From the IMG/VR virus record IMGVR_UViG_3300001528_000259, positions 64,001 through 128,000 of that record: a stretch of 64,000 nt of DNA, one strand, 5' to 3'. The notes under the pieces were generated by a model. It did no database searches. It saw only the letters and a program-made list of their open reading frames with translations, and was not told the origin of the DNA. Below, piece after piece: positions 1,461 to 63,999 of the stretch (within the stretch, counting starts at the first letter, position 1; each line of letters opens with the position of its first letter). A program made the position numbers and the translations under genes. The DNA is from a virus (lineage: Duplodnaviria; Caudoviricetes).

Positions 1461-1568
1461 CTTTAGTTCCTCCTTACAGGTAAAAAACAAAATGAAGTGG
1501 TTAGAGAATGGTAAGGCACTCTCAACGATGATCAGTCGCTGTCCCACCAATCATTTTGTTGTGTAATC

Positions 1569-1596
1569 ATTATATCGCAAATAATCTATTTGTCAA
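1569..1596 (-). promoter_or_regulatory. consensus sigmaA promoter TTGACA-N16-TATAAT for the endonuclease gene
   Basis: Minus strand reads TTGACA aatagattatttgcga TATAAT. Confidence 0.75.
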
Positions 1597-1631
1597 TATG
1601 GATATGACACAATTTACACTTTATTAATATT

Positions 1632-1949
1632 TTATTTTGTATTGATTTTTTTACTTGTAGATACGATTTCGTCTATCATCTTAGATACCGCATCAAGATC
1701 AACTTCATAATCTAGCGTCTTGCTCAGTTGAGTGATGCTATCCATGACATATGCTTTCCTATCCGCCCCATTTTGGTAGTTCTCTTCAGCCTCGGTCATG
1801 AGTTCTAATACAATTGACATAATCTTCCCAAAGTTCTTTTCCTTAATTGCCATCTTAATATATTTAACTAATTGTATAACAAGCGGAATCGCAGTACCAA
1901 GTCCAGCTACAATAGCAAGTATAAGATTTAAAACATCCATAAATTCCAT
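1632..1949 (-). CDS. putative holin (LL-H-like)
   Basis: N-terminal TM helix, then AEE..GADRK.YV motif; located at end of tail module. Confidence 0.6.
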   Translation of the reverse strand: MEFMDVLNLILAIVAGLGTAIPLVIQLVKYIKMAIKEKNFGKIMSIVLELMTEAEENYQNGADRKAYVMDSITQLSKTLDYEVDLDAVSKMIDEIVSTSKKINTK

Positions 1950-1968
1950 AATAACAGCCTCCTTTTAA

Positions 1969-2421
1969 TCATTTTGATGTGTGATAGGCGGGAAACTCTT
2001 GATTATTATAATAATTCATAATAAAATTAAATTCAGTTTCTCCGTCATGATTTTCGTGTAATTTTTCGCTGTATTTTCGATAAATAGATCGAATGTGGTC
2101 CATCTCTTCTGGGTGCAACCTAATTCCTCGACGGCACCTGTTTCCACAAGCAAATAATTCACCACGAATCCTATCAGCTTCATTTTCCAGCACATTTGAC
2201 TTTACACGTGCAAGTTCTTCTTTGATATTTTCGTTATCTTGAAGAAGAAGATCCATTTTATTCGTTACATCATTCATTTTCTCAACCATTTGTGTAAACT
2301 GAGATTTTCTGGACACAGATTCAACAATCCAGTTTCTCAATGGCTTGATAATTGCAACCGCCAAGCCCAATATAGTCGATATACAACCAACTACGGTTGC
2401 AATGTTTTTAAAAATATTCAT
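1969..2421 (-). CDS. membrane-anchored coiled-coil protein, holin-associated
   Basis: One N-terminal TM segment plus coiled coil; lies between tail-tip gene and holin. Confidence 0.55.
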   Translation of the reverse strand: MNIFKNIATVVGCISTILGLAVAIIKPLRNWIVESVSRKSQFTQMVEKMNDVTNKMDLLLQDNENIKEELARVKSNVLENEADRIRGELFACGNRCRRGIRLHPEEMDHIRSIYRKYSEKLHENHDGETEFNFIMNYYNNQEFPAYHTSK

Positions 2422-2479
2422 GAGCGTTTACCTCTATATCATAATGTATTTTTTGTTCTGCTCAGAGGTTCTTTTATTT

Positions 2480-61335: not shown

Positions 61336-62046
61336 TCATTTCAACTCATCTGCATGACTTGAAATCCAACCACGATAATTAGTATTCAGTTCGCATACCG
61401 CTGTTCTCGGATCATCCTTAAAATGCTCAAGATAACGCACAAAACCACTGTTCTCTGGATTGTGATACAAATCAATCTGCCCACTATGTCCAATGACAAT
61501 CACCTTACAACTATCAGCCATGCGCGTCAAAGTCTTTTTTAACTCATCAAGATAATAGTTCTGAGCTTCATCTATAATAACAACCTTGTTCTCAAAGTTA
61601 CATCCCCTTAAATAAACGTGTGTAATCGCGTCTATATAAGATGTTCCATTTTTTTGATTCATAATATTGTATTGATGAACCGCCGTATTCGGGTTAATAT
61701 TAAGTTTAATTAACGCTTCTATAAATGGTTCGCTATAAACAGCCGTCTTATTTTCTATTTCGCCCGGAAGAAAACCAAGTTTGCTTTCCTGAGTAGGAGA
61801 GGAAATATAAACAATGCCGTCATACAGTCCATACTGAACTAACAAATTTGCAGTTGCCGTAGCAATAAACGTTTTACCCGTGCCTGCTCGTGCATTACAG
61901 AAAACTATAAGTTTTTCTGGATCCCATATCATATCTCTAAACACCTTTTGTTCGTCATCAAGATTAAATCCATAAAACGGATGATCTTTGAGGGTTTTAG
62001 GAGCGTCCGATCCAGCAGAATATTTTACATTATAAGATTTCGCCAT
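61336..62046 (-). CDS. phoH: PhoH-family ATPase
   Basis: AGTGKT, LGFLPG, YLRG, IIDEAQN, LTR, G...QID. Confidence 0.9.
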   Translation of the reverse strand: MAKSYNVKYSAGSDAPKTLKDHPFYGFNLDDEQKVFRDMIWDPEKLIVFCNARAGTGKTFIATATANLLVQYGLYDGIVYISSPTQESKLGFLPGEIENKTAVYSEPFIEALIKLNINPNTAVHQYNIMNQKNGTSYIDAITHVYLRGCNFENKVVIIDEAQNYYLDELKKTLTRMADSCKVIVIGHSGQIDLYHNPENSGFVRYLEHFKDDPRTAVCELNTNYRGWISSHADELK

Positions 62047-62059
62047 AAGTTATCTCCAA

Positions 62060-62809
62060 TCATTGTGTTATATCTAATGGTGCGTTCTGTTTATACAAAG
62101 ATTCATTTGGTGCAAATTCACCAAAATATTCAATTTCAGCTTGTCTACGAACATCAATTGCTTGTTGCTTGTTTGCAAAACTTCCTAAATAATAGTCTTT
62201 GCCATTACAAAACAGCCTAGCACACCACCTGTTTATTCGTTTATCAAAATATACACCTAAATTGCCACTATTATTATTTGGAAATGAAACTCTATGACGC
62301 ACATTTTCAGCTATTGTACAAACTCTTAAATTACTCTTTCTATTGTCTAATTTATTGCCATTTATATGGTCAACCACCATATCACCTGAGCAATTCATTA
62401 TAATCCTATGCATACTCACATTCGTATCATCCTTATGAGCATATGCATATCCATAATTATTCAACATCCAGCAATAATTCTTAATCAAATCATAATCTTC
62501 TATATCAAAATAGAATTCTTGGTCGTTATTAGAAAGAAAACCAATTCCATATTCTTTTGATAAATCATATTGGTTATATTTTTTACACCTATTACTCGTC
62601 TGTTCTCGATTGAAACATCCACAAGATTTAGTATGTCCACTTTTCAAATCTTGTGATGTCACGAAAACAATATTTTTATCCACGCACGAGCAAATACACT
62701 TCCACATTGGATAATGACGGCCACACGGTGCAATATAATCCTCTGATTGTTCAATTACAATAAGCCTTCCAAATTTCATTCCAGTTAAATCTTTTCTAAC
62801 TTTAACCAT
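62060..62809 (-). CDS. second HNH-AP2 homing endonuclease
   Basis: DLTGMKFGRL, SCGC, MHR, VDHINGNKLDNRKSNLR, AP2 tail. Confidence 0.88.
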   Translation of the reverse strand: MVKVRKDLTGMKFGRLIVIEQSEDYIAPCGRHYPMWKCICSCVDKNIVFVTSQDLKSGHTKSCGCFNREQTSNRCKKYNQYDLSKEYGIGFLSNNDQEFYFDIEDYDLIKNYCWMLNNYGYAYAHKDDTNVSMHRIIMNCSGDMVVDHINGNKLDNRKSNLRVCTIAENVRHRVSFPNNNSGNLGVYFDKRINRWCARLFCNGKDYYLGSFANKQQAIDVRRQAEIEYFGEFAPNESLYKQNAPLDITQ

Positions 62810-62819
62810 TTGTATATCC

Positions 62820-63446
62820 TCATTCAAACAATATGGAATAATCTTCAACTACTTCATCAACGATACCACTCTCAAATGCCTCGTACTCCGTGAAATAAAT
62901 GTCAGATGAAGCCCTTTTTTTATAAACCTTTGGATCAATTTTTGTATGACTAAGCAAAAAATCCTGATATTTCTGTTCCATTGCCTTCATATATTTCTGC
63001 GTTGACTCAACAACGCTCTGTTCACCGCCAATAAAACAACTTCCTCTATGAATCATTGTTGTGCTGCCCTTAAGAGCAAATCTCTTATGTCCGGCAACAA
63101 GAAGTTCTGCGGCGGCACTATAAGCATAACTAAAGTTGATGGTCCAACAAGGAGTCTTTGATGTCTGAATAGCCTGCATAGCAGACCACATAGCCTGAGT
63201 TTCTCCTCCTGGAGATGAAATAAAGATTTTAATTGGCTTTCTGTCCTCAATGGAAATATCTTTATCTTCCTTATTGCAGCGAATAATCATCTTAACAAGT
63301 TCAAGAAGACTATCGTTAATCTCATCATCAACCCAATAAATTCTATCTTGCATATCAAGATAATGTTGACGAAGTTCTGGATCTGGCAGTTGAAGATTTG
63401 CCGTTGATTCCGAGATTCCTACGAGTAGATTATTAAGTTCGTCCAT
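62820..63446 (-). CDS. clpP: ClpP-like serine protease
   Basis: PIKIFISSPGG, YSAA (Ser), MIH (His), SDIY (Asp), GIVDEV. Confidence 0.85.
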   Translation of the reverse strand: MDELNNLLVGISESTANLQLPDPELRQHYLDMQDRIYWVDDEINDSLLELVKMIIRCNKEDKDISIEDRKPIKIFISSPGGETQAMWSAMQAIQTSKTPCWTINFSYAYSAAAELLVAGHKRFALKGSTTMIHRGSCFIGGEQSVVESTQKYMKAMEQKYQDFLLSHTKIDPKVYKKRASSDIYFTEYEAFESGIVDEVVEDYSILFE

Positions 63447-63588
63447 AGTTTGTTCTCCTTTGTGTTTCGTTTTAGTTTTGTGATAGGGAAATACTAACGT
63501 AGATACCTCTACTTATGTATATCAGTTAAGAAAAATTCGACCACTTTCTTAGCTGATTAATATTCCAATAGCATTTTCCTATGGTTTA

Positions 63589-63999
63589 TCAATCATTTTG
63601 TTGTGTTAGATTTTTTCTATTTTTTTCTGCCCAAAGTCTTTTTTGTTCAGTTTGAACTATTTTAGCACACTCTTCACAATATTTCTTTGGTTTTGTTTTA
63701 CTCTGTTTCATTAGTCTGTGACACCTATGACACTTTGTGTAACCTTTTCCATTGTTTTTCCAACTAAGATATACGTATGCAAGCTCTTGACAATCAAGTT
63801 CATCGATTGACAGCACTTCTTCCCCATCACAAATAATTTTCACAAATAGACATTTCGTATCATTCTTTTTCGGAGATTCAATCATGCCACATTTAAGAAG
63901 CTTGTGCAAAATATATTCTCTATCTTCCGCAGGAACAGAAATGCGAGCCATCTTACACAAATCCGTAATAGAATACTTCACAAGCCCATTGGTGAACCC
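63589..63999 (-). CDS. partial hypothetical protein with C-terminal Zn finger; continues beyond window
   Basis: Frame open to window edge; C..C..KYC..C. Confidence 0.6.
   Translation of the reverse strand, partial: GFTNGLVKYSITDLCKMARISVPAEDREYILHKLLKCGMIESPKKNDTKCLFVKIICDGEEVLSIDELDCQELAYVYLSWKNNGKGYTKCHRCHRLMKQSKTKPKKYCEECAKIVQTEQKRLWAEKNRKNLTQQND

Follow-up and report, generated by a model that had tools for sequence, protein, structure and literature searches.

Repeated boxes and neighbouring genes in the window

The DNA analysed here (the window, 64,000 nucleotides) comes from a phage genome of 138,724 bp and carries on its plus strand ten exact copies of the 10-mer AATCATTTTG, at positions 1549, 1967, 15272, 15384, 15491, 27898, 49358, 53017, 58178 and 63591; a scan of the whole window found no exact copy on the minus strand. 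The same ten positions, and the absence of opposed copies, had been reported in a previous, sequence-only reading of this DNA, whose three near matches at 12882, 62058 and 23442 were all found again, while a good further copy at 51067, the variant ACAATACAAAATTATT (sense strand), had been overlooked. Dinucleotide shuffles of the window contained on average 0.75 copies, and never more than 3. Over the whole genome CAAAATGATT is the commonest 10-mer, with 34 exact copies, as compared with an average of 0.7 and a maximum of 4 for permuted 10-mers. The true repeat unit is a 16-mer, ACA[A/C][A/T]A-CAAAATGATT, for which a position weight matrix (PWM) finds 45-51 matches genome-wide against 1-9 in Markov simulations, an excess over background that the sequence-only reading had proposed to check. 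This asymmetric box, of 16-19 nt, is frequently preceded by TTA.

All boxes and promoters located in the window are assigned to the minus strand. The box ACACAACAAAATGATT at 1549..1564 precedes the HNH endonuclease gene 249-1460, which is driven by a perfect sigma-A-type promoter, TTGACA-16-TATAAT (1569..1596); the 16-mer starts 4 nt past the -10 and covers the expected transcription start, in agreement with the earlier placement of this copy, the 10-mer of which starts 10 nt past the -10. Other copies sit at gene junctions, where several overlap stop codons, as had been rightly noticed from the protein endings SK* (1967), QND* (27898) and TK* (58178). The TGA within ACACATCAAAATGATT (1967..1982) is the stop of ORF 1969-2421, and the SD and ATG of a holin-like gene (1632-1949) follow 3 and 17 nt past the box; ACTCATCAAAATGATT (27898..27913) overlaps the stop codon of ORF 27896-28453, with an SD 3 nt and an ATG 16 nt beyond it (gene 27306-27881); and the TGA within ACAATACAAAATGATT (58178..58193) terminates an HNH_3/AP2 endonuclease-like ORF (58180-58956), after which comes ORF 57841-58155. 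A second copy of ACACAACAAAATGATT (63591..63606) overlaps the stop of ORF 63589-63981 and has 144 nt of non-coding DNA behind it; a block of 76 nt that surrounds this copy is near-identical in the relative L038. The junction box ACCAAACAAAATGATT (49358..49373) is found between two genes, 12 nt past where 49379-50455 stops and 30 nt ahead of 48749-49327, and ATCTAACAAAATGATT (53017..53032), past gene 53049-54572, has an SD 2 nt and an ATG 17 nt beyond it, belonging to a 59-aa ORF (52820-52999).

The variant copies are more diverse. The intergenic ACAATACAAAATTATT (51067..51082) has one core mismatch and scores 17.9 bits, and the weak variant ATATAACACAATGATT (62058..62073, 12.9 bits) occupies the junction past ORF 62060-62848, with an SD immediately after. 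The variant ACACAACAAAATGATG (23442..23457, 19.4 bits) falls within a 1674-aa tape-measure ORF and its functional role is uncertain. Finally, AGAGAATAAAATGATT (12882..12897, 12.6 bits), intergenic and 40 nt ahead of the start of a 470-aa gene, is a doubtful member, because its score is at a level reachable by chance.

Three further boxes lie in an intervening sequence of ~1.43 kb (14260..15693, minus strand) that splits the tape-measure gene and holds an HNH endonuclease gene (14349-15260) with its promoter. One of them, ATAATACAAAATGATT (15272..15287), abuts the SD of the endonuclease gene; a second, ACTACACAAAATGATT (15384..15399), sits midway along the intervening sequence, away from any start codon, and is kept in the relative L090; the third, GCACGACAAAATGATT (15491..15506), falls, as previously described, within the -35/-10 spacer of TTGGCA-17-TATAAT (15481..15509), the promoter serving the intron-borne gene, its first 3 nt being the final 3 nt of the -35. 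In the relative G003 the tape-measure gene is a single continuous frame of 3670 aa and the intervening sequence is absent, while this genome and the relative G001 share the insert together with its HNH gene, the promoter of that gene and the three boxes, in support of the earlier proposal that mobile endonuclease genes have taken up the motif. The three copies ascribed to a second intron do exist (15272-15500), but the label 'intron' is supported by this comparison only, because no group I intron in Rfam matches 14260-15693.

Orientation and placement genome-wide

The bias seen in the window extends to the whole genome, where strand and junction preference had also been named as a check. Among 45 boxes, 44 are co-oriented with the genes (p = 3e-12), and for the 34 exact copies the box strand flips wherever the gene strand flips. 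Non-coding DNA is touched by 38 of the 45, against an expectation of 14.6% (p = 3e-25), and nine overlap the upstream stop codon. In 22 of 45 copies the gap between box end and SD is 0-6 nt, the start codon of these SD-adjacent copies lying a median of 16 nt past the box, while ~13 copies are not close to a translation start. Around 30 boxes, two thirds of all copies, occupy gene junctions without a recognisable promoter. Most copies are held by the early arm, and the late structural arm has some too.

Both box and placement are conserved. In two relatives with a median protein identity of ~56%, the exact 10-nt core occurs 43 and 47 times, and boxes tend to precede the same orthologous genes (odds ratios 15 and 28; p = 9e-6 and 2e-8), so that the position statistics in relatives, likewise suggested beforehand, came out significant.

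Promoter geometry

When perfect promoters of the TTGACA-16/17-TATAAT type are considered, 12 of 13 have a co-oriented box, in one of two discrete geometries. In the first, the 16-mer begins 1-12 nt past the -10, over the transcription start; in the second, it begins exactly 26 nt before the end of the -10, within the -35/-10 spacer, and the ACA of the -35 therefore doubles as the start of the box. The same geometry is found in G003 (7 of 10 perfect promoters) and G001 (7 of 8). Six boxes across the three genomes lie in exact register in spacers that are not transcribed, and one box overlaps a -35, which argues for recognition at the level of DNA. At three promoters, with gaps of 7-8 nt, the conserved ACA... 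portion would also precede the position where transcription is expected to start. A DNA-level site had already been favoured, and rightly so, although the stronger arguments are these spacer boxes and the dyad described below rather than the predicted RNA stems that had been invoked.

A candidate repressor encoded by the phage

Outside the window, at genome positions 13644-14588, the phage encodes a homologue of MrpR/YopR/SroF (L004) with CB and CAT integrase-like domains. Its best PDB sequence match (phmmer) is MrpR/YopR (E = 2.7e-7), and the top Foldseek matches are YopR, MrpR and phi3T SroF bound to DNA (8bj6, 8a0a, 9rd5; E ~1e-7), for a structure model of mediocre quality (pLDDT 63, TM ~0.44). 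An hhalign comparison with YopR plus SroF covers 259 columns at a probability of 96.4%; the Pfam family MrpR_N_CB scores 23.7 bits, under its curated cut-off of 27, and identity to the known SPbeta repressor is ~20-26%. PF00589 has no match in L004, whereas the adjacent gene is a canonical integrase (4e-38), of which the HxxR, GH and catalytic Y positions are unmatched in L004. Because this alignment is at low identity, it constitutes moderate evidence that L004 has lost the tyrosine-recombinase catalytic signature.

The only reversed box of the genome lies directly upstream of the MrpR-like gene, in the spacer of the promoter TTGCAA-18-TATAAT. At the promoter of the same gene, relatives have an inverted pair, CAAAATGATT-GCAAT-AATCATTTTG, perfect in three of them and near-perfect in four more. 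Other parts of the SPbeta switch were looked for: a neighbouring protein of 366 aa matches neither AimR nor any other PDB sequence in a sequence-level search that distant versions could escape, and no Cheo (LexA) box, GAAC-N4-GTTC, occurs in the first 20 kb of the genome (1-20 kb). Thus, the arbitrium and Sar parts of that switch are not evident.

Comparison with known systems

Repeated repressor sites of this kind are known from Bacillus phages. MrpR binds SPBRE in SPbeta, as determined by ChAP-seq and EMSA (PMC10516654), and SroF of phi3T binds as a monomer to a 26-bp asymmetric box (bioRxiv 10.1101/2025.11.27.690993; PDB 9rd5). Our scan of SPbeta found ~11 SPBRE, all 11 clear copies being co-oriented with genes, and that of phi3T ~27 boxes, all co-oriented with transcription and none in the late arm below 53.8 kb; some boxes of both phages abut SDs or overlap gene ends.

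The resemblance to SPBRE is extensive. Both are repeated asymmetric boxes, phage-only and gene-co-oriented, that occupy either the -35/-10 spacer, where the -35 continues into the box, or the stretch from -10 to SD; in the genome described here, early sigma-A promoters are overlapped in these two ways, which is also the arrangement of the Phi3TRE type. In both, one box is at the promoter from which the repressor itself is expressed and another precedes a yonO-type polymerase gene, and the candidate binder is here a homologue, with an integrase fold and without the catalytic box. The 5' halves are alike (ACAAATACAAAT... in SPBRE, ACAATACAAAAT... here). In contrast, the 3' half is unlike and the present box is shorter (16-19 nt versus ~20) and more numerous (~45-50 copies versus ~11 in SPbeta), two thirds of its copies are at junctions lacking a recognisable promoter, others are in the late structural arm and the intervening sequence, the repressor's own promoter has an inverted pair, and AimR, Sar or LexA-box parts are not detected. 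With Phi3TRE the likeness is in placement, several phi3T boxes being found at internal gene junctions and overlapping upstream gene 3' ends, whereas the sequence is unrelated (a 26-bp AT-tract box in phi3T). Boxes in the late arm also set this phage apart from phi3T, which counts against an operator, and binding and structure are experimental in phi3T but predicted for the present array.

A third comparison is with the stoperators of Cluster A mycobacteriophages (L5 gp71, TipsytheTRex repressor), which are asymmetric 13-bp sites, bound by a monomer and present in more than 20 copies; copies at early promoters serve as operators and those in short intergenic gaps as stoperators, and their orientation closely tracks that of transcription; in L5 an orientation-dependent block of elongation has been shown (PMC9283540). 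The boxes described here are likewise asymmetric, oriented with transcription and found at early promoters and in short intergenic gaps, but host phylum, site sequence and site length (13 bp) differ, the mycobacteriophage repressor has an unrelated fold (HTH plus stoperator domain versus integrase fold), and the elongation block shown for L5 is here inferred. Since the candidate binder has an unrelated fold, the link is one of functional analogy and not of membership.

Interpretation and alternative explanations

The most likely reading, to which we assign a probability of about 0.72, is that the boxes form an operator array, the counterpart of SPBRE/Phi3TRE, with the MrpR/YopR/SroF homologue as putative master repressor. 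An operator was among the options put forward by the sequence-only reading, and it is well supported by the fixed geometry on nearly every consensus sigma-A promoter, the inverted pair at the promoter of the MrpR/SroF-like gene and a layout resembling that of SPBRE/Phi3TRE. Counting against it are the ~30 boxes at which no promoter can be recognised, the SD coupling of 22 of the 45 boxes, which would suit a role at the mRNA level too, the strict co-orientation, for which a simple steric repressor has no need, and the low Pfam score and mediocre structure model of the candidate.

The array could instead be bound by another phage DNA-binding protein, such as a small HTH or Arc-type regulator, which we regard as improbable. 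The assignment to the MrpR-like protein relies on homology and the dyad in its promoter, and that dyad would equally suit control of the gene by a different regulator; moreover, the Sar, LexA and AimR parts were not found (at sequence level, and in the first 20 kb for LexA). Yet long asymmetric boxes, single and oriented, suit a monomer with a large footprint such as SroF (bioRxiv 10.1101/2025.11.27.690993) and fit poorly with small dimeric HTH/Arc repressors, which prefer dyads, whilst box geometry and 5' half resemble SPBRE and the box is identical in the relatives, all of which retain the MrpR-like gene.

Somewhat less probable still is an mRNA element, 5'-UTR or intercistronic, that would be read upstream of the Shine-Dalgarno by a translational regulator, an endoribonuclease or the ribosome (cf. 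T4 RegA/RegB targets, leader enhancers). The strict sense orientation, the distances to SD (0-6 nt) and start codon, the retention of the motif even over the last codons of the upstream gene and, at promoters, the location of most copies within the transcribed leader would all agree with it. Nevertheless, it is at odds with the untranscribed spacer boxes and the box over a -35, with the ACA... portions upstream of expected starts, with the reversed and dyad copies in the repressor gene's promoter and with the ~13 copies distant from any translation start; no Rfam family matches, and SPBRE, experimentally bound as DNA, has the same sense orientation and SD adjacency.

A promoter, loading or pause site for the YonO-like single-chain RNA polymerase encoded by the phage (genome 128355-131189), another option raised earlier, is disfavoured and appears the least probable of the three. 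Phage RNA-polymerase promoters (T7-type, P_YonO) are indeed oriented conserved words ahead of genes in phages that encode the polymerase, the motif is present in the late arm, the non-coding block that holds the box at 63591, immediately past the polymerase gene cluster, is highly conserved, and the sequence of the YonO promoter is not known (PMC5467207). However, most copies belong to the early arm and occupy perfect host sigma-A promoters, either at a constant offset or within the spacer, boxes directly abutting an SD leave scant room for a leader, two inverted copies at the promoter of the repressor gene would be meaningless if each were a promoter, and YonO of SPbeta uses a single late promoter, P_YonO (PMC5467207). 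A partition or nucleoid role, also once considered, has no specific support.

For the operator array, we infer the identity of the binder and the effect of its binding as follows. The L004 protein, with its integrase-like fold, would bind the boxes as a monomer and act as master repressor of a distant SPbeta-like phage; at early promoters, where the box is over the transcription start or in the spacer, the bound repressor would keep initiation by host RNA polymerase switched off in the lysogen, and the dyad or dyad remnant at its own promoter suggests autoregulation. Mobile endonuclease genes, one of them within the tape-measure intervening sequence, have promoter-plus-box cassettes of their own. 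The ~30 junction copies are probably extra binding sites, which would block read-through in a stoperator-like manner or silence weak internal promoters. That they are true stoperators, at which an oriented monomeric SroF-type repressor blocks elongating RNA polymerase at gene boundaries of both arms, with homing-endonuclease and intron cassettes placed under the same immunity control, is a tentative proposal drawn by analogy; in the late arm, the block could possibly extend to the YonO-like polymerase that the phage encodes.

Significance

The type of switch is already known from the Bacillus phages SPbeta and phi3T, and the box array is most likely a further case of it, by which the recently described integrase-fold repressor switch would be extended to a distant lineage of uncultivated large phages with a YonO-type polymerase, known here only from this genome and metagenomic viral contigs. 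The conserved box, with its 16 nt, two exact promoter geometries and 43-47 exact 10-nt cores per complete relative, is useful for studies of binding and specificity; in the annotation of these phages it serves as a marker of early promoters and of the limits of transcription units. The oriented junction copies lacking a promoter, together with those in the late arm and the intervening sequence, raise the question of whether silencing of the SroF type can operate by a stoperator-like block of elongation; if so, an unrelated protein fold would have convergently reinvented the silencing strategy of L5.

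Abundance, Orientation and Extent of the Motif

The ten exact copies of AATCATTTTG that a sequence-only reading had counted in the window all lie at the coordinates it gave, on the + strand and with none on the - strand, against 0.75 +/- 0.77 copies (maximum 3) in dinucleotide shuffles. The one-mismatch copies that it listed are likewise present, and a further good one lies at window 51067. Since the genes of the window run on the - strand, the sense form of the motif is CAAAATGATT. The window covers bases 64001-128000 of a virus record that consists of one contig (138,724 bp, 35.7% G+C). 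Over this whole genome, the exact 10-mer occurs 34 times, 21 times on the + strand (7-59 kb) and 13 times on the - strand (65-136 kb), a split that agrees with two divergent gene arms. It is the commonest 10-mer of the genome, permuted 10-mers having a mean of 0.7 copies. Alignment of the copies gives a unit of 16 nt, ACA[A/C][A/T]A-CAAAATGATT, here called the box. The suspected excess and the bias in strand and location both hold genome-wide: a weight-matrix scan returns 51 matches of at least 12 bits, compared with 1-9 in Markov simulations, and among the 45 best boxes 44 are co-oriented with genes (p = 3e-12) and 38 touch non-coding DNA, against 14.6% expected (p = 3e-25).

Placement at Promoters and Gene Junctions

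Of the perfect TTGACA-16/17-TATAAT promoters in this genome, 13 are oriented like the genes, and 12 of them are accompanied by a co-oriented box. At 11 of these, the 16-mer starts 1-12 nt past the -10, so that the box covers the expected start site, and at the remaining one it starts exactly 26 nt before the end of the -10, so that the box opens with the ACA of the -35. Both geometries recur at near-consensus promoters, for instance at window 15481-15509. About 30 further boxes lie at gene junctions where no promoter is recognisable. The box overlaps the stop codon of the upstream gene in nine cases and ends 0-6 nt before an SD in 22 of 45; for about 13 boxes there is no translation start in the vicinity.

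The box at window 63591 is also followed by no start codon. The 76-nt block around it (window 63530-63610, genome about 127530-127610) is almost identical in L038, a relative whose surrounding sequence is about 72% identical. This block comes shortly after the polymerase gene cluster and ahead of the first structural genes, and is therefore a candidate late-promoter or control region. Variant boxes were seen in the stretch of the same genome designated L004. One of them, CAAAGTGATT, runs into the -35 of a TTGACA-17-TACAAT promoter (L004:11579-11660); a short reading frame without annotation follows this promoter, and the integrase and repressor genes lie downstream of that frame. Another lies upstream of a + strand gene (L004:5128-5526) for a 132-aa phage protein matching the C-terminal domain of the bacterial RNA polymerase alpha subunit (PF03118, 5e-08).

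Conservation in Related Phages

Relatives were collected by an exact 16-mer scan of IMG/VR, in which many contigs showed 3-8 co-oriented copies. Whole records hold 43 exact copies in G001 (163 kb), 47 in G003 (170 kb, with terminal repeats) and 29 in G002 (an 82-kb fragment), arranged in strand blocks, with 0-3 copies of a reversed-word control. Between this genome and G001 or G003 there are 112-117 reciprocal-best orthologues, with a median identity of about 56%; the MrpR-like proteins of the two relatives are 52-70% identical. Presence of a box ahead of a gene in this genome predicts its presence ahead of the orthologue: one is found in G001 in 13 of 19 cases where this genome has a box, compared with 7 of 98 where it has none (p = 2e-8), and in G003 in 10 of 17 compared with 8 of 95 (p = 9e-6). 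About a third of box positions differ between orthologues, which indicates turnover of boxes. This ortholog-based test is more informative than nucleotide footprinting, in which the contrast was weak (90% identity in the box, 80% in the flanks), only nine sites being spanned by alignable relatives.

Intervening Sequences and Endonuclease Genes

The tape-measure gene is distributed over three ORFs, 21712-26736, 15694-20343 and 12949-14259 (window 12949-26736, - strand), separated by two stretches of about 1.4 kb each; the homologous regions lie within one 3670-aa frame in G003. ORF 20642-21613, in the first separating stretch, has no Pfam match. Window 14260-15693 contains an HNH endonuclease gene (14349-15260) with its own promoter and three boxes. 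It is an intervening sequence that some relatives do not have, because the G003 homologues of the end of ORF 15694-20343 and the start of ORF 12949-14259 sit 73 nt apart inside that single frame. In G001 the same two parts are 1.8 kb apart, with three boxes between them spaced as here. The sequence-only reading had called this region an intron with three copies; the copies and the intervening nature stand, but an Rfam search of window 12800-21800 at E <= 1 returned nothing and recognised no group I intron, so that it is best termed a putative intron.

A box likewise accompanies the perfect promoter of a second HNH gene, which is free-standing (249-1460), in keeping with the earlier suggestion that mobile endonuclease genes had adopted the motif. 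Homing-endonuclease-like genes of HNH, NUMOD and AP2 types number at least six, the others being at window 58180-58956 and 62060-62848, at L004:17070-17819 and, in another stretch of the genome, at L008:3219-3887. Several adjoin boxes or carry their own promoter-plus-box.

Genome Relationships and Host

A YonO-type single-chain RNA polymerase (genome 128355-131189, L008:355-3189, - strand; Pfam RdRP, 8.8e-16) and other SPbeta-like replication and packaging genes are present in SPbeta order at 20-30% identity. The closest phage relatives of the polymerase are from Clostridium phage c-st (36%) and Bacillus phage BUCT082 (29.5%), its identity to SPbeta-group YonO being only about 25%. A megablast search of a phage collection with 7 kb of window sequence gave no match. 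The low GC, the sigma-A consensus promoters and SDs of the form AAGGAGG suggest a host in the Bacillota. At gathering thresholds, Rfam finds only two tRNAs in the whole window (60821-60893 and 61016-61087, both - strand, late arm), near which lies a ClpP-type protease gene (62820-63446); no Rfam RNA family or group I intron model matches the motif region.

An MrpR-Like Gene behind a Reversed Box

A single box, at genome 13591, is on the "wrong" strand; it occupies the spacer of a TTGCAA-18-TATAAT promoter directly upstream of gene 13644-14588. In three metagenomic relatives the same site reads CAAAATGATT-GCAAT-AATCATTTTG, a perfect inverted pair over the -35 and spacer, and four further relatives keep this dyad with one change. 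The best PDB sequence match of the gene product is MrpR/YopR of SPbeta (E = 2.7e-7). With its AlphaFold model (mean pLDDT 63) as query, Foldseek ranks YopR, MrpR and DNA-bound phi3T SroF above Xer and Cre recombinases, and a profile-profile alignment to YopR plus SroF spans 259 columns at 96.4% probability. The protein has no PF00589 match, nor was an HxxR/GH/Y box found in it; a canonical tyrosine integrase gene lies immediately upstream. No relative was found with the protein and its alignment in reference prokaryote genomes, or with the protein as single query in viral contigs.

A Candidate Operator Array

The boxes are most likely an operator array, and the most likely binder is the MrpR/SroF homologue acting as a monomer. 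SroF of phi3T encircles DNA as a monomer and binds a 26-bp asymmetric box (bioRxiv 10.1101/2025.11.27.690993). In our scan, phi3T (KY030782) holds about 27 SroF boxes, defined by <=3 mismatches to a 20-mer. Every one points with transcription, and they are restricted to 53.8-125 kb, with none in the late arm. Several occupy internal junctions, where they overlap the 3' end of the gene upstream, a stoperator-like layout of which no description was found in the literature consulted. About 11 copies of AAATACAAAWAATATGTATA occur in SPbeta. The 11 clear ones all run with the genes, and each either follows a TAGACA -35 directly within a promoter spacer or falls between -10 and SD. The 5' half of SPBRE, the SPbeta box bound by MrpR/YopR, resembles that of the present box.

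That a protein other than the MrpR/SroF homologue binds the box is unlikely. Somewhat less probable still is an element acting in mRNA: sense orientation, SD adjacency and stop-codon overlap already occur, by the two scans taken together, in boxes known to act as DNA, and it is also disfavoured by the dyad, by boxes located in spacers that are not transcribed and by copies without an SD. Among the options of the sequence-only reading, the operator is favoured by the promoter geometry and the dyad at the MrpR-like gene, but a YonO-type promoter was rejected as the main reading because YonO of SPbeta has one late promoter (PMC5467207), and with the boxes set geometrically on host promoters it is very improbable.

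Compared with the published SPbeta and phi3T cases, the present phage has a different box sequence and copy number. Many of its sites are at junctions without a recognisable promoter, others fall within the late arm or a mobile intervening sequence, and the repressor promoter carries a dyad. The phage has no detectable arbitrium or SOS parts, neither an SOS box nor AimR having been found near the repressor gene. The operator array may find a functional parallel in Cluster A mycobacteriophages, whose monomeric repressor binds asymmetric, transcription-oriented sites as operators and intergenic "stoperators" (PMC9283540). Boxes at promoters would block initiation, the dyad would serve autoregulation, and junction boxes may act as added roadblocks or silence weak promoters.
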